Shown here piece after piece: positions 1-10,757 of a stretch of DNA of 10,757 nt. The notes under the pieces were generated by a model that worked only from the letters and a program-made list of their open reading frames with translations, was not told where the DNA came from and did no database searches. How positions within the stretch are numbered: the first letter of the stretch is position 1; every line of letters starts with the position of its first letter. Origin of the DNA: a virus (taxonomy: Duplodnaviria > Heunggongvirae > Uroviricota > Caudoviricetes); IMG/VR virus record IMGVR_UViG_2693429677_000014, positions 1 to 10,757 of that record. One strand, 5' to 3'. A program made the translations under genes and the position numbers.

Positions 1-682
1 ATACAGAATAATCATCAAAATCAAGTGGGCTATCAGCACCCGGCGTCAGGCTTGCAATATATCCTCTTCCCATAACTTCTGATGCTGGTATTTCTTTTGT
101 ACGATAATCACTAACTCTGAAGAGCTGCCCTTGGTGGGTGTGTAATTCCACTCCTCCATTCTGAAGACTTAGCAAGGCACGTACAGCATCAATACCACGC
201 CCGTCATCCCAGCCACGAATAAACTCACCACGTAAATCAGGCAATTTATTTGTCGGATAAGCCTTTGCCAGTTCCGGGTATTCTTCAGCAGAAAAAGCGG
301 CACCGTTGCATTTCAGCCAGCCTGTTGGCGGAGTGGCTGAAGGCCACGGAACAGGCACCCCAACCGGTAATGCAGAGCCTTCTCCCAAACCAAGGTTTTC
401 GAGAGCCGTTTTCACCGTGCCATCCGATTTGATATCACCAAACGGATTCTTGCGGCTTAACAGCAGAGCACGAAGCGCGGTAAGCAACTGGTCGTGCCGC
501 GCCTTCTCCAGACTGGCACCGGATGCCTCAACAACGCTACAAAGTTCTTCCTGCAACATGTCAAAGTAGTCATCATCCAGATCGGTGGCAGGCGTGCCAG
601 TCTGGGGGTTACCACGGGTAAAACCGTTCTTACCCGCGCCGAACTTATCCTTCTGCGCGGTTTTCGTGTCTATACGATGCAT
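1..682 (-). CDS. stfP: Side tail fibre protein, N-terminal part (e14/Mu S-type, with phage tail-collar domain); CDS is open at the window start
   Basis: Absent from the ORF track because it runs off the window edge. Own minus-strand translation from ATG at 682-680: [47 protein letters not shown]...[72 protein letters not shown]..., no stop down to position 1. Start lies 4 nt after the ymfQ stop. The PWPS...GWLKCNG...YP motif is the tail-collar domain seen in Stf proteins. Confidence 0.75.
230..393. repeat. 164-bp perfect direct repeat, copy 1 (tail-collar coding segment inside stfP)
   Basis: Base-by-base comparison: 230-393 is identical to 1369-1532 in the same orientation; mismatches immediately outside both ends. 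Confidence 0.9.
380..405. promoter_or_regulatory. Hin/Gin/Cin/Pin-type DNA-invertase crossover site (pix-like), inside stfP
   Basis: TTCTCCCAAACC-AA-GGTTTTCGAGAG: two near-palindromic 12-bp half-sites around an AA core, close to remembered hixL (TTCTTGAAAACCAAGGTTTTTGATAA). The repeat boundary falls exactly after the AA core. Confidence 0.6.
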
Positions 683-685
683 GGA

Positions 686-1270
686 TTACTCCGGATATTT
701 AAAAATTACGTAGGTATGCGACGGGCAGAGTTTGTTAAGCACACACTCGACAACGGTGTCGCCCCAGATACGCAGTGCGGAATCACAGGGATCGCCACAT
801 GTCATCCAGGTGGTGTTGGTGGCGGCTGGCATGTTGACCTGCCAGTAATACCGCCATTCCGGCGCATTCACCGCGTCAGTACAGGCCGATGAGCAGGTGA
901 AAGTGCTTTTGTCGTATCGCGTGATGGTGGCATCTGGTCTGCCCAGGGCAGCAAGCTGTGCAAGATAAAAATCCTCGTTGATGCCGCCCGCCAGGTTAAC
1001 CTTCGCATCCAGCCGTTGCTGACGCTGGCGAAGGGTCTGTGTCCCTGCGGGAATACATTCATCCGGCAGACCGCACAGACGCTCCCAGCGGTTTATCAGT
1101 TCATTGGTGGTGCGCGGATCCAGCTCCCGCATAAGGGCATCCGCACGCTGATGAACGCGGGTTAATGACGGTGCCGCACCGGCAATCGCCGGATCGCTGG
1201 CTGACCACGCCGGACCGGGGGGCAACAGTGCCGACAACAGACGGATGTAATCATCGTTTGTCACGTCCAT
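686..1270 (-). CDS. ymfQ: Phage tail protein, DUF2313 / Mu gp48-like (e14 YmfQ-like)
   Basis: ORF track 686..1270, 194 aa, [34 protein letters not shown]...; matches remembered e14 YmfQ in length and sequence; sits immediately upstream of the tail fibre gene as in Mu-like tail modules. Confidence 0.8.
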
Positions 1271-1368
1271 GAAATCGTCCCCAGTACCGCCAGTTCATTT
1301 TTTGCAATGGAGATATTGTCTGCCGGTGCAAGCAACTGATGGCTGTATTCCCCGTTCGCACCGGAAAT

Positions 1369-1532
1369 ACGTAAATCAGGCAATTTATTTGTCGGATAAG
1401 CCTTTGCCAGTTCCGGGTATTCTTCAGCAGAAAAAGCGGCACCGTTGCATTTCAGCCAGCCTGTTGGCGGAGTGGCTGAAGGCCACGGAACAGGCACCCC
1501 AACCGGTAATGCAGAGCCTTCTCCCAAACCAA
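1369..1532. repeat. 164-bp perfect direct repeat, copy 2
   Basis: Identical to 230-393 (checked in 10-nt blocks). Confidence 0.9.
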
Positions 1533-1544
1533 CATTTATGAAAA
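1519..1544. promoter_or_regulatory. Second invertase crossover-type site (pin-proximal), same orientation as the site at 380-405
   Basis: TTCTCCCAAACC-AA-CATTTATGAAAA: left half and core identical to site 1; right half retains the TTT..TGA.AA pattern of hix/gix right halves; lies about 55 bp upstream of the divergent pin start. Confidence 0.45.
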
Positions 1545-1598
1545 TGCAGAAATAACGAGCAAATGGCATCATTCCTGCTTTTGTCAGGGGGCGCTACC

Positions 1599-1727
1599 AT
1601 GCTTATTGGCTATGTACGCGTATCAACAAATGACCAGAACACCGATCTACAACGTAATGCGTTGAGCTGTGCAGGATGCGAGCTGATTTTTGAAGACAAG
1701 ATAAGCGGTACAAAGTCCGAAACCTAG
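1599..1727 (+). pseudogene. pin: Serine DNA invertase (Pin/Hin/Gin family), 5' fragment only; truncated after about 40 codons
   Basis: Own translation: MLIGYVRVSTNDQNTDLQRNALSCAGCELIFEDKISGTKSET*, matching the conserved invertase N-terminus (catalytic Ser in YVRVSTNDQ); homology ends around codon 38-40, then TAG at 1725-1727. Confidence 0.75.
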
Positions 1728-1774
1728 GGCTGACACTGCTGTTCTTATTGCAAATTAAAGGATTTAATAGTGAG

Positions 1775-1802
1775 TAGCGGCCTTACTAATGTAAGGCCGC
1801 TA
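1775..1802. terminator. Hairpin between the convergent pin remnant and the GmrSD gene; possible bidirectional terminator
   Basis: Perfect 11-12 bp stem AGCGGCCTTAC / GTAAGGCCGCT with TAAT loop, 21 nt after the GmrSD stop; T-rich run (CATTTTATT) follows on the plus strand, no clear U-tract on the minus strand. Confidence 0.4.
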
Positions 1803-1822
1803 TAATCATTTTATTAATTGCA

Positions 1823-3712
1823 TTAATCGTGTTTTGGCCATACTTTCAATGCAATTTCCCCCAACTTTTTACCCCGCTCCAGGATTTCATCCTCATCCCA
1901 TTTATCCTTAACTATAAGTGGAATGTTCAGTCGTAGATTGGTGTGGACGATGAGAGCATCACGTTTTTTCAGAAATACAGCATTCTGAACAGAACGGTTT
2001 ACGCTAAGGTTAAGCAAAGTTAGATTTCCCAACGTAGTTATCGCTTGTTGCCGTTTCCTTACCAGTAGCTGTTCTGGGGTAAGATCGGTTCCAGACAGAA
2101 CAATTTGGTTCAATACCGTAGCATCTGAATTTGTCACCATATGACCATTTTCGAGAGGCCAACAGGAATACCAACTTTGAGGCATAAGATGATCGATATC
2201 GAGGTTAGAAAGATTTGGAACATCAGGCTTCTCTGTCTTCACTTGGCGACAAAGTTCTCTTTCAAGTTCCGTTAACATTGAGCGCATTTTCGGTGCGTCG
2301 AGCCTGCCAGGATAAAGTGGAGCATTGATGCAAGCGTTGAGAAATTCTGAGTCCCCAGGCCAACGTGAGGCTTCGCCATTTAAGCTATTGAGGATATTAC
2401 GTAACTCAACACTGGAAATTTCTGTTTTAGACAAGTGCCGCAATACATTCATAAATACATTGTTGTAATTCTTTGGCGTCAGGCCACATACGGCTCTTCG
2501 TACTACGTAGGAGACAAGATCATTATACATGGCTGCTTTCTCATCATCGGCGATGTTAGCTATCGAAATGAACAAAGCAAGCGGATAAAGTGTCGTCACA
2601 TCATAGGCTGCGATGCGATGTCCAAAGTGTGAGATGGGGGTTGTGCCAAAACCACCAACCAATTCTTTATATTGTGATGCATATTGTTTGAGGCGCTTTA
2701 CTTGCAGATCTGCTCGTTGTGAAGGCAAGTCCTTACTTACATAATCACGATACTCATTGTAAAGACGAGACAGATCGATTTCACGTTGCCTTTCTGATTG
2801 CAATGTTGCATGCACTAGCCACTCCATGCGTGGTTTATTAATACGACCACGACGTTGTCTTTCTGACCAGTACGTATCTTCAAAGATCTTCCACTCATTC
2901 TCATATAATTCAACAGCATTAATATTTTCATGTTCAGCGCACATAAAAATATAATTGCGAATAAGATCTGTGGCATGAAGTTCCGCACCTCTGCCATTTA
3001 ATGTTTCAAAAATTATTTGAGCGTCATCTTCAGCCTCGAGAAATATGCTTACTAGTTTCAGATCCGTCAAGACAGCCTCAATTAATGCTACAGCATTTTC
3101 TCGTGGTGAGTGATTTTCTATTTTAATCCACTTTATAAAGGCTTCAGTAAAAAAACATAATGCTTCTAGTGATGGCGGGTGATTAAAATGCTTACGCAAC
3201 GTACCATGCTGCGTGAAACTATCAGAGAATACATTCCGGATATCGTCAATATTTTCAACATTAAAACTTTGAATAAAATGAGTTTGATCCCGAAAAGTTG
3301 GCCACAGTTTGAAGCGCTCTACTTCTTTATTTCGCATTGTGTCTTCGTTTGAGTTTTTCAGGCAAGACGAAATGAGAGGCTCTAAGTTGGAAAGATCTGT
3401 TGCACGTAATGCTAATCGGATGGATGCCAGAACATATTGAAGAGTGGTCAATCGTTGCTGACCATCAATAATATGTATGGAATCTACACCGAATAATCCT
3501 TTTTTTGGTTGAGGTTCCAGTACAACTGCACCAAGGAAATGGGGAGTTGGTTTTGTACCCGAGAGCCGGGATTGTGCTTTCTCTAGGATATCCTCCAGTA
3601 GAGCTGACCATTGGTTTCGCTGAGTCCATACATAGGCACGTTGATAGAATGGAACACAGTATTGTCGGCGGTCTTGAAAAAGTTGTTGGACAGTTAGCGT
3701 CTCGGATTTCAT
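1823..3712 (-). CDS. GmrSD-family putative type IV (modification-dependent) restriction endonuclease: N-terminal DUF262 (ParB-like, DGQQR motif) + C-terminal DUF1524 (HNH/His-Me finger)
   Basis: ORF track 1823..3772 (649 aa). Motifs YCVPFYQRAYVW and IIDGQQRLTTL (DUF262); C-terminal DIDHLMPQSW ... LGNLTLLNLSVNRS (DUF1524). Start chosen at ATG 3712 (MKSETLTV..., AGG 7 nt upstream); the upstream ATG at 3772 has no Shine-Dalgarno and overlaps a TAAAAT -10-like hexamer. Confidence 0.8.
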   Translation of the reverse strand: MKSETLTVQQLFQDRRQYCVPFYQRAYVWTQRNQWSALLEDILEKAQSRLSGTKPTPHFLGAVVLEPQPKKGLFGVDSIHIIDGQQRLTTLQYVLASIRLALRATDLSNLEPLISSCLKNSNEDTMRNKEVERFKLWPTFRDQTHFIQSFNVENIDDIRNVFSDSFTQHGTLRKHFNHPPSLEALCFFTEAFIKWIKIENHSPRENAVALIEAVLTDLKLVSIFLEAEDDAQIIFETLNGRGAELHATDLIRNYIFMCAEHENINAVELYENEWKIFEDTYWSERQRRGRINKPRMEWLVHATLQSERQREIDLSRLYNEYRDYVSKDLPSQRADLQVKRLKQYASQYKELVGGFGTTPISHFGHRIAAYDVTTLYPLALFISIANIADDEKAAMYNDLVSYVVRRAVCGLTPKNYNNVFMNVLRHLSKTEISSVELRNILNSLNGEASRWPGDSEFLNACINAPLYPGRLDAPKMRSMLTELERELCRQVKTEKPDVPNLSNLDIDHLMPQSWYSCWPLENGHMVTNSDATVLNQIVLSGTDLTPEQLLVRKRQQAITTLGNLTLLNLSVNRSVQNAVFLKKRDALIVHTNLRLNIPLIVKDKWDEDEILERGKKLGEIALKVWPKHD

Positions 3713-4169
3713 GGTATACCTGTAAGCGACATTGTACAAAAGTGAGGAGTTAATCTGATTTAGAACAATCATTTTATGTTGCTATGATACAACGTATTTG
3801 TTACCGGTTAAGTAAAAAACGCGTCTGAACGCTGACGTTTTAGGGCTTTACTAGTTATTCTTTCTTATCTCTTCATCATCCCATCGGCATCCTGTCGAGG
3901 TTGTTGACTTGTTGTTATTTATTTTGTTTAGGCGCTGTTTAATTATTATTGATGGGACTGGTGGTGAGAGGTGATTGAAACCGCAGACAGGTCGTATGCA
4001 AGACGTGCTGCGGTTGGCTGATGCACTTTTGATAGTGCAAGTATTGAATGATTGCCAGTCACAGCGGATTGTACTTAGGTAATATGACGGTTCAAGGCGT
4101 TTAAACTGAAACCATCCACATATCAGTCTCTTCAAACATTTCCTAAATCGTTCGGCTTATCTGTTCTTT

Positions 4170-4605
4170 CTCACGTTTGCTGACGTCAGTGCTGATTGCC
4201 GGCAGTGTCATCATCGGTTTTACACGATACCCTTTGCGTTGAACGAGTCGTACTACTGTAACAACGCGTCGGTGAAGCTCCTCATCCCGACACAGGACAG
4301 TCGGGATATCATTGCAGTAGCAACGGGGAGTCTGGATGCAATATGGAAAGACGGACACCGATATCAGAAAGCCGGGGTAATGCTGGGGGACTTCTTCAGT
4401 CAGAGCATGCCCTAACCTATTCGACGATAACGCGCTGGGTCCTGGGAGCGAAAAGTTAATGAGCGTGCTGGAGCACCTCAACGCAAAAGACGGGAAGGAA
4501 ACACTCTGTTTCGCTGGGCAGGGCATTCAGCAGCAGTGGCAGATGAAACGCGAGATATTTTCGCACCGGTATACAACTAGATTTTCTGGCATTTTAGGTG
4601 GTTAG
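4170..4605 (+). pseudogene. umuC: umuC-like (Y-family translesion polymerase Pol V catalytic subunit) 3' remnant; frameshifted, 5' two-thirds missing
   Basis: Own translation: ...PFALNESYYCNNASVKLLIPTQDSRDIIAVATGSLDAIWKDGHRYQKAGVMLGDFFSQ then frame change, then FDDNALGPGSEKLMSVLEHLNAKDGKETLCFAGQGIQQQWQMKREIFSHRYTTR..., which parallels the remembered UmuC C-terminus (ASVKLLTPTQDSRDII ... FAGQGIQQQWQMKRAMLSPRYTTR). 17 nt where about 21 are expected between FFSQ and FDDNA. Confidence 0.65.
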
Positions 4606-4642
4606 ATAGATATTTATGCTCTACGCAATGAATATGAGAGAA

Positions 4643-5308
4643 TTAATTGTCTAAGCTGGTATAATATGAATAAAGGCTTTTTCCCATTATTTTCTCTAAA
4701 TCCTTTTTGTTTCTAAAGAAAATGTTTGAGATATGCTGATGATAATACTTTATAATGATTCTCATCAGCGCCGATACTACCTCATGAAGTTTTTTCACCA
4801 TTTTATGCTGTGTTGAATTACAATCTCCCTCCATAAGTGATATAAATGTTGATGTAACATTTAGGTTCGCTTGGGGGGAGGAGTGAACATAATAACAGGC
4901 GTTGATATAGACATTATGTAAATAAGACCAGCCTTCATCGACTTGTTGGGCTTTTAAGAAGTCAAAGTCTCTACGACGTACAGTTTGGTCAAAATCCCCA
5001 CCATTGTAGTTCTTATTGAGGCTTATTCTGGCCACATGCTCCACCATTGAGCGGAAGTTCAGTTGGAGATACCGTTCTCTTTTTTTTATAATGGCAATTA
5101 AGGAGTTTAAGGTATCATATATAAAACCTTTTATATAAGAAGAGTGATTTAGATTAGGATTGTGACTTAAAATTGTATTACAAAGACTTATTTGCCTAAA
5201 TATTGATACTGATTTGTTTATTTCATCAGTGGTTCTGAGGTGCTTTTGCACCTCCGCTCTAAAATAATTTACATCTCTTCCAATGTTGAAGGGATCCTGC
5301 GTGAGCAT
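4643..5308 (-). CDS. Hypothetical protein (221 aa), third gene of the AT-rich operon; no recognisable domain
   Basis: ORF track 4643..5308; start ATG overlaps the upstream stop as TAATG (translational coupling); AT-rich codon usage consistent with its neighbours. Confidence 0.6.
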   Translation of the reverse strand: MLTQDPFNIGRDVNYFRAEVQKHLRTTDEINKSVSIFRQISLCNTILSHNPNLNHSSYIKGFIYDTLNSLIAIIKKRERYLQLNFRSMVEHVARISLNKNYNGGDFDQTVRRRDFDFLKAQQVDEGWSYLHNVYINACYYVHSSPQANLNVTSTFISLMEGDCNSTQHKMVKKLHEVVSALMRIIIKYYHQHISNIFFRNKKDLEKIMGKSLYSYYTSLDN

Positions 5309-5706
5309 TATTCTTCTTCCTTTTTATTTGCATTAATCCAAATATTTAAATTCCTTATAGCATGCTTGCTTTTAGATGTGGATTTTTGGCTTGTTTTATT
5401 TGCATCATTAAAAATAATGTCTAATGTGTTAATGTTGTTTAAGAAATGCGTATAAGCCATCTTTATGTCATTCTCACTTAATTCATTAATATGTTTGCAA
5501 ATTTTAGCGCACATCAAAGTTCTTGACCGTACAGCATAATTCAAAAAAGATATTTTGAAGGTTTTGTTAATAAATTTACTAACATCAAAATTTGATCTAA
5601 AAACCTCTTTTGAAAGAATCAACATAATTACCAAGCCTAAGAAGTTTTCTTTGGTCATGGGCATATTGTTAGCTTTATTGAGCGCTTTAATTAATTGTTT
5701 ATTCAT
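5308..5706 (-). CDS. Hypothetical protein (132 aa), Lys/Asn-rich; second gene of the AT-rich operon
   Basis: ORF track 5308..5706; overlaps the ParA-like stop by 8 nt and the downstream start by 1 nt; no motif recognised. Confidence 0.55.
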   Translation of the reverse strand: MNKQLIKALNKANNMPMTKENFLGLVIMLILSKEVFRSNFDVSKFINKTFKISFLNYAVRSRTLMCAKICKHINELSENDIKMAYTHFLNNINTLDIIFNDANKTSQKSTSKSKHAIRNLNIWINANKKEEE

Positions 5707-6544
5707 TTGTGTTACCTTCCAAGTGAGCCACTCTGTTAATAAATTCGTTACAGATCTTTTCTATATCTTGGCGTGACTTTGAATAACAAGAAGGAATATT
5801 TCCTTGATAACCTACCATTAAATCACGCACGTAGGTTAATTGATTTTCAAAGAAATAAAAATTTGTAAATTGAGTATGGTTTTCGAATTGTTCTTTAATT
5901 TCCCTTGTTTTATTGGTCATTTCAGCATCAGTGTTTGTATAAATGTAACCGACTTGCTTGATTTCTTTCTCATGATGTGTGCGCATATTTCTTATAACGC
6001 TATTTAAACTGCTTGCTCCAAGCACCGAGTAGTGATCAATTTTAACCGGAGTAAGATAATAATCAGAAGCAAGGAGTGCGGTATCTGTAAATAATGAGAT
6101 TGTTGGGGGGCTATCGATAAAGATATAGTCGTAACTTTCTTTTAAGTCATTTTCGGTGATGAATTTACGCAACATTTTTATTCTAATACCCTCTTGGTTA
6201 GTATCAAAGATAATGTTTATATCACCTAAGATAATATCAAGATTGTCTGAAACTTTAGTAATGACCTGTTCTGGTGTCACTTTCTTTTCATCTTCCATTA
6301 ATGAATTTGGAAGCTCAAAAATCTTTCGAATGGTTTGATTATTAGGGCGAAGGGCAGTCATATATTCTTCTACTCGATCATAATGCCCCATTAAGGACTG
6401 AGTGGCATTAAATTGAGGATCAATATCGATAACTAGAACCTTGCGCCCCATATGGTTGGCTAAAAACTCAGCAATCCCAACGCATAAAGTTGTTTTACCA
6501 ACCCCACCTTTCATATTGATAAAACTAATTACTGGTGCAGTCAT
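5699..6544 (-). CDS. ParA/MinD/Soj-family P-loop ATPase (deviant Walker A)
   Basis: ORF track 5699..6544 (281 aa): MTAPVISFINMKGGVGKTTLCVGIAEFLANHMGRKVLVIDIDPQFNATQSL (KGGVGKTT deviant Walker A, DxDPQ) and YDYIFIDSPP (Walker B); AAGGA Shine-Dalgarno about 10 nt upstream of the ATG. Confidence 0.85.
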   Translation of the reverse strand: MTAPVISFINMKGGVGKTTLCVGIAEFLANHMGRKVLVIDIDPQFNATQSLMGHYDRVEEYMTALRPNNQTIRKIFELPNSLMEDEKKVTPEQVITKVSDNLDIILGDINIIFDTNQEGIRIKMLRKFITENDLKESYDYIFIDSPPTISLFTDTALLASDYYLTPVKIDHYSVLGASSLNSVIRNMRTHHEKEIKQVGYIYTNTDAEMTNKTREIKEQFENHTQFTNFYFFENQLTYVRDLMVGYQGNIPSCYSKSRQDIEKICNEFINRVAHLEGNTNE

Positions 6545-7291
6545 TTTTTCATCCTTAATTATGTAGTGTGAAATAGATTCACTATGCTGAAAGCATTTTT
6601 TAGCTTGATTTTTATACTGCGCGTTGACTTATCACCCTATCATATATGATTTTTAGGTGTTGCATAGACTGGTTTTATATCAGGGGCTTAGGTTGTATGT
6701 GGCGTCACAGAATCACTAATCATTGAACTTTGTACATGTAACGGTCCTGTTAAATAATATATAATGGGTTGTTAAGTTGGCTCTCTGATTCCTGATGCCC
6801 CAAGGACGCGCGTCATTGCGTGCCAGATTAACTTTTCGGCGGGCACAGTGCTATCGGCAATTATTTCCTCAGCCTCTTTCCCGCATAGGTCTTGGCGCAT
6901 CCATTTTCTTGCTATGAAATCTCCAGCCGGTCAGACTGAAAGTATAGAAGAGAATATGCGAATCGCTGTTCCGGTGTTTCTGGGAGAGCTTATGTCGGAG
7001 TAATTCCCCGGTAATTGAATCTCTTTTGCTCGCTCATAACAGACATTCACTACAGTTATGGTAGAAAGTATGTATGCTGATTGGGGAAAGTGTGAAAGAA
7101 AAGAAGACTGCTGCGCTGTTTGTCGTCACGTTTATCTTCATTGGCTATGCAAGTCATAATACAAGGTGGGACAAAACTGAGACACATAAGGCCTCACAAT
7201 GGCTTGCAAGGCTTTACATGTTTTGATGTGGTGGGACGTGTGAGCACAGTGTTGATGGGGTAATACTTTGAATTAGAAGCGGATTCTTATA

Positions 7292-7337
7292 ATTCGTAAT
7301 GCGAAGGTCGTAGGTTCGACTCCTATTATCGGCACCA
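7292..7337 (+). pseudogene. tRNA-Thr(CGU) 3' fragment (anticodon loop to CCA), thrW-like; integrase attachment-site duplicate, not a complete tRNA
   Basis: ATTCGTAATGCGAAGGTCGTAGGTTCGACTCCTATTATCGGCACCA: CGT anticodon, T-arm GTAGG-TTCGACT-CCTAT, acceptor 3' strand plus discriminator A plus CCA; no D-arm or 5' acceptor strand upstream. Ends 14 nt from the integrase stop. Confidence 0.7.
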
Positions 7338-7351
7338 TTTAAATCAATAAA

Positions 7352-8512
7352 TTACCTCACATTTAAGTAAACCACGTTCACCTCTTGTGCCGTATTTGTG
7401 CCATTGCGACTTATAATCGCATCGATTTTGCTCGCGTGCTCGGTGAGATGCCCGGCTGAAAGGTGGGCGTATCTTTGAACCATTTCGAGAGTTTCCCATC
7501 CTCCCATCTCTTTAAGTGCAAGAAGAGAGACACCGGACTGAACCAGCCAGCTTGCCCAGGTATGCCTCAGGTCATGGAAGCGGAAGTTGCTAATGCCCGC
7601 CCGCTTTAACGCTCCCTTCCATGCCTTGTTGCTGTCGGTTCTCATCTTCCTTACCGCTGCTGTTTTTGTTCCGTCGCTTCGGTAGGCAGGTCTGGTGTGG
7701 ACAAATACCCATCTCTTATGGAGCCCCTGCTGTTTTCTTAATATCTGGCATGCGGTTTCGTTAAGAGGAACTCCGATCGCATTGCCAGCTTTTGTTTCAT
7801 CAGGGTGCATCCATGCCATTTTCTTATCCAGATCGACCTGTGACCACTCAAGGTCTGTAACGTTGGAACGGCGAAGGCCTGTCGTGATTGCAAACATGAC
7901 CACAGGGAAGAAATGAGGAGCAATTTCTGCAAACAGGTGCTTCGATTCCTCCTCTGTAAGCCATCTGATTCGTCCATTCTTAACGCGTGGTGTTGATATT
8001 TTGGGCGCCCTGTCAAGCCATCCCCATTCAACAGCTATATTGAGAATAGCGCGAAGTATTGCCAGATGCCGCGTCTTCGTTCCTTTGCTTGCCAGCTTTG
8101 GTTTATACTCCGGCACTGGCTTGCCAAGCCGCAAACACCTGTCCCGGCTCATCTCCCAGTTCAGGCGATGGCGGCGGTTTTCCATCCCGTCTACCGCCTC
8201 CATTATTTTTTCTGTTGTTATGTTAGAGAGAATGGTTTCTCTGAAGTGCAACATCCAGAACGATATAATGCTCTTGTCATCATCAATGGACTTCTTATCC
8301 GATTTCTCACGCAGCCACCGTATGCAGGCTTCCTTGAATAGCTTTTTCGGTGATTCCCCGAGATTTTTTACTCTCCACGCTTCTGCTTTCAGACGATCGT
8401 GAAATTCTTGCGCTTGCCTTTTGTCCGATATTTTAAGTGAGCGTCTAACTCTTGATCCATCTGGCGCGACGAAATCGCAGTGCCACGTGCCACCGCGTAG
8501 TTTGATTGACAT
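7352..8512 (-). CDS. int: Tyrosine site-specific integrase, lambdoid IntF/IntD (HK620/Sf6/SfV) family
   Basis: ORF track 7352..8512 (386 aa); AGGAGG 8 nt upstream of the ATG; catalytic boxes RFHDLRHTWASW and VQRYAHL; overall resemblance to remembered IntD/IntF-type integrases; 3' end abuts the tRNA-Thr fragment. Confidence 0.9.
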   Translation of the reverse strand: MSIKLRGGTWHCDFVAPDGSRVRRSLKISDKRQAQEFHDRLKAEAWRVKNLGESPKKLFKEACIRWLREKSDKKSIDDDKSIISFWMLHFRETILSNITTEKIMEAVDGMENRRHRLNWEMSRDRCLRLGKPVPEYKPKLASKGTKTRHLAILRAILNIAVEWGWLDRAPKISTPRVKNGRIRWLTEEESKHLFAEIAPHFFPVVMFAITTGLRRSNVTDLEWSQVDLDKKMAWMHPDETKAGNAIGVPLNETACQILRKQQGLHKRWVFVHTRPAYRSDGTKTAAVRKMRTDSNKAWKGALKRAGISNFRFHDLRHTWASWLVQSGVSLLALKEMGGWETLEMVQRYAHLSAGHLTEHASKIDAIISRNGTNTAQEVNVVYLNVR

Positions 8513-8687
8513 GCTTTAACCTCCTGCACATCAACCGCATTCACCGCGCTATTGTGTCTTACAGACTTAAGCGCCGCAATGCAGTCTGACTTGCAAATGC
8601 GATATGGGCTTTTAGGTTTATCTGGATTTATCTTTGCGGCCTGAAGTCGTCCACTTCGTATCCACTGCGTGATAGTGTCTTTGTCTA
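8389..8687 (-). pseudogene. Excisionase-family (AlpA/Xis-like) HTH DNA-binding protein, 5' end cut by IS911; reading frame overlaps the integrase start
   Basis: Minus-strand translation from the IS911 boundary: ...IDKDTITQWIRSGRLQAAKINPDKPKSPYRICKSDCIAALKS..., fitting the excisionase-family winged-helix pattern; no start codon in the flank, first helix missing; frame runs through the integrase RBS and ATG to a stop at 8389. Confidence 0.5.
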
Positions 8688-8759
8688 TGTAGTGGCACAC
8701 TGAATTTGGCCACCTGAACAGAGGTGATATGCTCACCTCAGAACAACACAGGTGCTCCA

Positions 8760-9930
<1,171 letters not shown>

Positions 9931-9968
9931 CCACTACAAATTGGCGACGTTAGCGTTACAGATATTAA

Positions 9969-10757
<789 letters not shown>

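Follow-up and report, generated by a model that had tools for sequence, protein, structure and literature searches.

We analysed a compact 1.9-kb module of three genes on the minus strand of a 10,757-nucleotide (nt) stretch of DNA, positions 1 to 10,757 of the virus record IMGVR_UViG_2693429677_000014. This whole stretch, called the window below, was found to be Escherichia coli DNA. The module, a candidate prophage-borne conflict system, codes for a ParA/Soj-type ATPase and two basic proteins, and it is preceded by an AT-rich leader. Lengths are in amino acids (aa).

6545-6780, minus strand: AT-rich untranslated leader of parA; AAGGAT ribosome-binding site
5699-6544, minus strand: gene 1 (parA), 281 aa, pI 5.4, ParA/Soj-type deviant Walker-A ATPase
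5308-5706, minus strand: gene 2, 132 aa, pI 9.8 (basic), predicted helical protein
4643-5308, minus strand: gene 3, 221 aa, pI 9.3 (basic), predicted all-helical and probably HEPN-like protein

A preliminary description of this DNA had noted three coupled genes with overlaps of 8 nt and 1 nt, as well as a base composition richer in AT than that of the surroundings. Both observations were reproduced. The open reading frame (ORF) coordinates were confirmed, and the junction sequences are ATGAATAA for the 8-nt overlap of genes 1 and 2, and TAATG for the 1-nt overlap of genes 2 and 3; ATG is the start and TAA the stop codon of each gene, and the AAGGAT site lies ahead of the parA start. The GC content of 4643-6544 was 0.331, compared to 0.52 in positions 1-1800, 0.495 in 7352-10757 and 0.445 in the whole window, that is, about 33% against about 50% in the outer flanks. 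The lowest value in a sliding-window scan was 0.29. Since homologues of all three are kept across phyla at 25-90% identity, we consider the three ORFs to be real genes.

In the leader (6545-6780), promoter-like sites were no commoner than in shuffled sequence, and the scan gave no convincing promoter. The repeats found there were short two-copy ones and one imperfect inverted pair of 26 nt (6627-6652 / 6752-6777).

The three encoded proteins

The gene 1 product matched the Pfam families AAA_31 (8e-38) and CbiA (7e-17) as well as the PHROGs family phrog_164, labelled 'ParA-like partition protein' (2e-57). All hallmarks of the ParA/MinD class were present in it, namely the deviant Walker A with the signature lysine, Walker A' and Walker B. 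The respective motifs, KGGVGKT at 12-18, DIDPQ at 40-44 and IFIDSPP at 131-137, all align to Soj structures; the alignment to the structures 6iub and 1wcv was obtained at 1e-18, and the ParF and delta structures appeared as sequence-level relatives. The score of the protein was far under the cut-off of every NCBIfam partition equivalog. We also observed that a C-terminal stretch of about 60 aa is specific to the family and is kept even in the Bacillus homologue, with the ParA of the Bacillus triad being 44% identical to gene 1 over the full length. Judged by its sequence, gene 1 codes for an intact and complete Soj/ParA-type ATPase of type Ib size. This agrees with the earlier assignment to the ParA/MinD-type deviant Walker-A ATPases, and so does the statement that no ParB-like partner comes after it: no ParB- or ParG-type protein was found there.

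The gene 2 protein had no match in Pfam or NCBIfam and no fold match. Among the PADLOC models, it reached only a sub-threshold similarity to PD-T4-2_B (expect value, E, of 0.0027) over 40 residues, and in PHROGs it falls into phrog_6264, a family with no function assigned. A profile search with gene 2 led to homologues in the Bacillus pumilus group. The AlphaFold model (predicted local distance difference test score, pLDDT, of 79.9) has a helical domain (1-95), a disordered linker (100-110) and a C-terminal helix (112-130). This last helix is conserved, with an invariant Trp123, and the protein as a whole evolves fastest of the three. The fold search with the all-helical model returned no ribbon-helix-helix, helix-turn-helix or ParB fold, and for this reason the protein is predicted not to be a centromere binder of the ribbon-helix-helix or ParB type. 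We propose a role of an adaptor, regulator or sensor.

The gene 3 protein had no match in Pfam, NCBIfam or PADLOC; its PHROGs family, phrog_7540, has likewise no assigned function. When 1.84 billion representative proteins were scanned exhaustively with HMMER, only 102 relatives came up, nearly all of about 220 aa; the family comprises about 100 clusters at 50% identity. The AlphaFold model is confident and all-helical (pLDDT 89.5, predicted template-modelling score 0.87), with helices that include 78-96 and 127-142.

Among 88 family representatives, residues R86, E90, Y134 and H142 were invariant, and S87, R94, D65, K38 and C138 were conserved in more than 90%. Since R86/E90/R94 and Y134/C138/H142 are spaced at i, i+4 and i+8, each set is predicted to line one face of a helix. 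The invariance of R86, E90, Y134 and H142 suggests an enzyme. The window protein itself carries RSMVEH at 86-91, which matches Rx4H literally and falls within helix four (78-96) of the model.

With respect to the fold, the protein probably adopts that of HEPN ribonuclease (RNase) toxins, with a residue set that is divergent and probably catalytic. The Foldseek search of PDB left the fold unconfirmed: it gave a best E of 0.17, with HepT at E 1, nothing significant. Sequence-profile searches of PDB were empty or gave noise, and no HEPN family of Pfam was reached at E<=10 by 31 close or 85 diverse members. By profile match, gene 3 thus falls outside every described HEPN family. The candidate assignment to canonical HEPN RNases was rejected, since the motif His is not conserved across the family. 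We propose that gene 3 is the effector of the module, probably an RNase.

We also noted six relatives (P0107, P0134, P0136, P0145, P0156 and P0174) with a C-terminal extension of about 75 aa. These have Gly, Ser, Gln, Ala or Leu at the position matching His91.

Co-inheritance, prophage slots and genomic setting

The preliminary description had left it as a check whether the three genes travel together. We found strict co-conservation in all loci examined. The order ParA, gene 2 and a gene-3-type ORF was present in 46/46 loci fetched outside the window, with one third gene, from a Lactococcus phage, being doubtful. All the loci reached with gene 3 (in Dickeya, Yersinia, Pantoea, Erwinia, Xenorhabdus and Vibrio) had the triad in a tight array; the same was true for loci reached with gene 2 (Bacillus) or with ParA (an E. 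coli variant and the Streptococcus phage Javan1, where the gene 2 ORF is present and unannotated). Genes 1 and 2 also stood immediately upstream of gene 3 in each of the 29 IMG/VR viral contigs carrying gene 3 (29/29). Identity to the window proteins varied from 44 to 78% for ParA, from 25 to 67% for gene 3 and from 32 to 44% for gene 2. We observed that the three genes diverge together.

The Lactococcus phage PLg-TB25 (L017) has ParA, a relative of gene 2 (E 5e-9) and a third protein of 251 aa (4734-5486). The latter retains RSxIE..R and Y...VH.N in order, and its hhalign probability to gene 3 is just 19%. It could be either an extremely divergent member of the gene 3 family or the result of an effector swap.

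Among the 5426 complete E. coli genomes, 68 had a triad, never in two copies and never with both variants in one genome. The window-type triad (at >=99% identity) was present in 52 of the 5426. A second variant, with gene 3 about 53% identical, accounted for 16 genomes; 15 of its copies were chromosomal and one was on a circular 44.6-kb phage record. This record, deposited as a plasmid, represents the phage found integrated in the 15 other genomes, so that 67/68 E. coli copies are chromosomal. A gene-3 profile search of GTDB species representatives found only three loci, and the species breadth is under-sampled in this number. A DNA-level search of phage and plasmid collections returned the Walker-A region of ParA and one variant triad only. 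The module is rare and patchy, and it spans Gammaproteobacteria and Firmicutes.

The positions of the triad within prophages were variable. In some, the triad directly follows a CI-type repressor gene and shares its strand; for example, the locus L028 has cII and O diverging on the far side, and in Javan1 the order is CI-like S24 repressor, triad, integrase. The slot downstream of the repressor is the position of rexAB in lambda. In L037, L041, L043 and L049 the triad comes right after the integrase, at the end of the prophage, and in the window, in E. coli strain PM4 and in L021, L038 and L046 it is between tail-fibre genes and the attachment site (att). It is also found antisense within the morphogenesis module of a Pantoea prophage, straight after the holin/amidase lysis cassette of a PBSX-like Bacillus prophage, and in integrase-bounded islands in Dickeya and Yersinia. 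Altogether, there are five kinds of slot in at least six phage backbones, plus non-phage islands. Such slots are typical positions for dispensable temperate-phage cargo expressed in the lysogen. The variable positions in unrelated prophages, along with the deviant GC (0.33 compared to 0.445), argue that the module is autonomous prophage cargo, i.e. a moron.

In Yersinia (L003-L005, 10942-19263), a protein of 2773 aa with the domains LPD5, LPD1, MuF_C and LPD38 adjoins the triad, and a pRha-type regulator is present too. The large protein is of the giant polymorphic-toxin or mobile-element type.

Within the window, the block 3968-7406 is shared, at 99% identity, with a lambdoid prophage of strain PM4, in which it forms the right end. 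The order in PM4 is tail fibre, tail-fibre assembly, DinI fragment, UmuC fragment, triad, fragment of an SOS-response-associated peptidase (SRAP) and the host genes yagP/paoD. The features outside the module were as follows.

1823-3772, minus strand: GmrSD-type type IV restriction enzyme (Pfam GmrSD_N + GmrSD_C, i.e. DUF262 + DUF1524; PADLOC mREase_IV, 1437 bits)
4143-4229, minus strand: DinI fragment (PM4 annotation mapped via alignment)
4224-4605, plus strand: UmuC C-terminal fragment, frameshifted (PM4 annotation; IMS_C match on 4239-4415, plus strand)
6772-6912, minus strand: SRAP C-terminal fragment (RefSeq annotation of the PM4 block)
7293-7337, minus strand: 3' fragment of the tRNA-Thr gene thrW (matches annotated tRNA-Thr in E. 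coli genomes)
7352-8512: second integrase, complete
8724-9930: IS3-family element with a split transposase
10143-10688: fragment of a third integrase

An ORF of 127 aa at 4143-4526 (minus strand) was rejected as a gene, being antisense noise. In a related viral contig (L027, 1242-5785), the triad has an intact SRAP gene on one side and umuC/umuD-like genes, also intact, on the other, which argues that the window copy is a deletion derivative. The GmrSD-type enzyme at 1823-3772 is intact and of a kind that targets modified DNA; its gene was contiguous with the triad in 43/52 E. coli carriers of the window-type triad.

On the other side of the module, the segment 7293-7337 is the 3' part of thrW and the block shared with PM4 stops just beyond it, at 7406; we therefore take this segment as the attR of the triad-carrying element. 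Rfam and tRNA scans of the window returned nothing, with no intact tRNA. The thrW fragment and the integrases together point to a tandem hotspot, produced by serial integration at one tRNA site.

At the opposite end of the window, the two copies of a 169-nt direct repeat (99% identical, at 230-398 and 1369-1537) enclose a tail-fibre assembly gene similar to Mu Gp48 and a fibre-tip ORF with a tail-collar domain, with a truncated N-terminus of a Pin/resolvase alongside (ORFs 686-1270, minus; 1261-1572, minus; 1563-1727, plus). This region looks like a decayed remnant of an invertible tail-fibre switch of host range.

The neighbourhood described earlier (a type IV restriction gene, prophage debris and an integrase/tRNA site) is accordingly the one that we found, with GmrSD, the tail-fibre/Pin remnants, the integrase and the thrW fragment. 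The content of a host defence island, which was suggested along with it, did not hold up: the triad is a component of the prophages themselves, carried in their lysogeny slots as cargo.

Proposed function and rival explanations

We put at about even the chances that the module is a prophage-borne conflict system in which a ParA-type ATPase gates a HEPN-like effector. The system would most likely act in superinfection exclusion, in abortive infection (Abi) or as a toxin-type system. As support, we count the co-inheritance, the cargo slots, the confident model and invariant residues of gene 3, the basic character of the gene 2 and gene 3 proteins, the patchy distribution, the low GC, the contiguity with GmrSD, the disruptions described below, and a precedent predicted in 2013.

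The model that we infer includes protein-protein contacts, an RNase activity, a trigger and a defence phenotype. The ParA/Soj-type ATPase would be a nucleotide-dependent switch that forms an ATP sandwich dimer, maybe on the nucleoid. ParA and the gene 2 protein would hold the gene 3 protein inactive, with gene 2 as a putative adaptor or sensor docking by its conserved Trp-containing C-terminal helix. A cue from an infecting phage would alter the state of ParA and gene 2. The freed gene 3 protein would then cut RNA via its Arg86/Glu90 and Tyr134/His142 faces, translation would halt and the infection would fail.

ParA/Soj-class ATPases are so far known to position DNA and cargo on the nucleoid. 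One may speculate, at rather long odds, that an ATPase of this class, conserved from Enterobacterales to Firmicutes, serves as the sensing switch of prophage immunity, monitoring the nucleoid or incoming DNA and licensing a divergent HEPN-type RNase via the adaptor.

Several findings weigh against a conflict system. There was no significant match to a defence model of PADLOC-DB v2 (2023), with ParA being similar only at the Walker-A segment (PDC-M28B). The neighbours of the module were mostly ordinary phage genes and not recognised defence genes, GmrSD in E. coli aside. The HEPN assignment of gene 3 comes from one method, and the Rx4-6H motif is literal in only 11/88 representatives; at position 91, 67 of the 88 have N and 10 have H. 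A broken parA stands next to intact genes 2 and 3 in Dickeya (L002, IS1 in parA), in Erwinia sp. S63 (L012, a frameshift) and in E. coli SCEC020023 (L018, IS903B in parA). The literature searched, which did not cover very recent prophage-defence screens, held no paper testing this family. We also found no ParA-containing system mentioned in DefensePredictor and in an anti-conjugation preprint.

The disruptions were not limited to parA, as gene 3 is truncated by IS3 in E. coli p10A (L019) and p10B. Such repeated, independent loss is in line with an immune or toxic module that is costly, and may signal a burden on fitness.

An addiction module was considered as well, i.e. a toxin-antitoxin pair that stabilises the prophage or island with no protection from phages; gene 3 would be its toxin, with ParA, gene 2 or both as antitoxin. 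We regard it as unlikely. It is the published prediction for ParA/Soj-HEPN dyads (PMC3710099), and it would agree with the HEPN-like fold predicted for gene 3, with the tight translational coupling of the three genes, with the sites at prophage ends beside integrases, and with the fast evolution of gene 2, which is often seen in antitoxins. The module, however, has three components and not two, and parA is disrupted in at least three lineages with genes 2 and 3 intact. Unless the insertions are polar, these ParA-only disruptions argue against a simple scheme in which gene 3 is constitutively toxic and ParA neutralises it, and ParA as the sole antitoxin was rejected on this ground. Nor does the MAE_18760/MAE_28990 family of Pfam, which we take to be the HEPN-dyad family, appear among the Pfam matches listed for gene 3 and its relatives. 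Besides, many toxin-antitoxin systems act in phage defence too, so that this explanation overlaps with that of a conflict system.

A non-immune function in lysogeny seemed to us slightly less probable still. Here ParA would position or sequester a factor on the nucleoid (in induction, excision or host physiology), and gene 3 would be a non-catalytic HEPN-like binder. The links of the module to the repressor and integrase, the positioning of cargo typical of ParA-class ATPases, the loss of the canonical catalytic His of HEPN in most gene 3 family members, and the SOS-type cargo genes flanking the E. coli triad (SRAP, umuDC-like and dinI) are all consistent with it. On the other hand, R86, E90, Y134 and H142 are invariant in very divergent members, which suggests catalysis; autonomous movement among unrelated backbones and non-phage islands is not expected for a core lysogeny regulator, and the rarity of the module within closely related prophages indicates that it is dispensable.

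Least probable of all, in our judgement, is a partition or maintenance cassette similar to type Ib, where gene 2 would be a novel centromere binder segregating an extrachromosomal phage genome and gene 3 would be an accessory. The preliminary description had offered a type Ib cassette with an unrelated third gene as its alternative, and one can see the appeal: ParA is a complete Soj/ParA-type protein of type Ib size, PHROGs labels its family as 'ParA-like partition protein', gene 2 is small, basic and directly after parA, like ParG and ParB, and one copy is on the 44.6-kb circular record deposited as a plasmid. Yet this 'plasmid' is an integrating phage, the carriers are integrative prophages with integrases, and the E. 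coli copies are, with that single exception, chromosomal. Neither iterons nor centromere-like repeat arrays (three or more copies) turned up between positions 4300 and 7400 of the window or ahead of parA in nine loci; there were only single short palindromes upstream of parA, more like operators. The all-helical gene 2 model showed no centromere-binder fold, and ParA scored far below all partition equivalog cut-offs of NCBIfam. A PBSX-like prophage harboured the module too, and elsewhere it ran antisense within a structural operon; its third gene, with enzyme-like invariant residues, was strictly co-conserved. We looked for the three features that define a type Ib partition system, i.e. a centromere-binding partner, a repeat array and an autonomous replicon, and found none of them, which argues that the module is not such a system. 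Therefore, a label of 'ParA family protein' in a prophage should not be taken to mean a partition function.

To return to the prophage-borne conflict system, we know of no ParA/SIMIBI protein validated to date in phage defence, and to our knowledge a sensing principle of this kind has not yet been seen in bacterial immunity. If the module does protect lysogens, the ParA/SIMIBI class of P-loop proteins would join the nucleoside triphosphatases (NTPases) known to control toxic effectors. The module could reveal in what way infection is sensed by an ATPase that binds the nucleoid, and it would for the first time open the ParA-HEPN association of the 2013 prediction to experiment. The module is compact, is present in E. 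coli and has clear targets for point mutations, so that it is directly testable.

Comparison with known systems

The closest precedent is the dyad of a ParA/Soj ATPase and a MAE_18760-family HEPN protein, described by Anantharaman et al. in 2013 as a computational prediction of a toxin-antitoxin-like system whose RNase is under the control of the ATPase (PMC3710099). Both the dyad and the present locus have a gene of a ParA/Soj-type (SIMIBI-class) ATPase in an operon with a gene of a HEPN or, here, putatively HEPN-like protein. Unlike the dyad, this locus is prophage cargo, and a further, obligatory gene separates the ATPase gene from that of the putatively HEPN-like protein. In addition, gene 3 differs in having no match to the MAE_18760 family (the absence of HEPN hits in Pfam sets it apart) and in the lack of a conserved Rx4-6H motif. 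We found no experimental follow-up of the dyad in the literature searched. The earlier description of the locus as an undescribed system thus stands in part: the gene family and the three-gene form (ParA, predicted helical adaptor and HEPN-like effector) are new, whereas the general idea of a ParA/Soj-HEPN pair had been predicted in 2013 (PMC3710099).

Type Ib partition systems, such as ParF/ParG of TP228, ParA/ParB of pB171 par2 and delta/omega of pSM19035, share with the module a small deviant Walker-A ParA followed by a small basic protein. The module differs from them in having no ribbon-helix-helix fold or repeat array, in its third, enzyme-like gene, and in the setting of a chromosomal prophage.

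As for the stand-alone HEPN toxins of defence systems, AbiV, HepT/MntA and RnlA/LsoA, gene 3 matched neither HEPN_AbiV nor HepT of Pfam in sequence. The partners are different as well: an RNA or an MNT antitoxin in AbiV/HepT/RnlA-type systems, a ParA ATPase and a helical protein here.

The ABC-3C systems, put forward by Krishnan and colleagues in 2020, reportedly consist of an ATP-binding cassette (ABC) ATPase, a helical middle component and an effector, often a nuclease or HEPN protein. The module shares this three-part logic of an NTPase, a small and fast-evolving helical middle protein and an effector; its NTPase is of the ParA/SIMIBI and not the ABC class of P-loop proteins. A match to MC3 in one family member (E 0.012) was dismissed as noise.

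Lambda RexAB is a two-gene system of a sensor plus a membrane effector. The triad resembles it in slot and in the logic of expression, as it comes after the repressor and on the same strand in L028 and in Javan1. The two are not related in sequence or fold, and in place of the RexAB proteins there are a predicted cytoplasmic ATPase and a HEPN-like protein. By analogy, the locus would work most like NTPase-gated HEPN or Abi-type systems, in a position like that of the RexAB-type exclusion genes.

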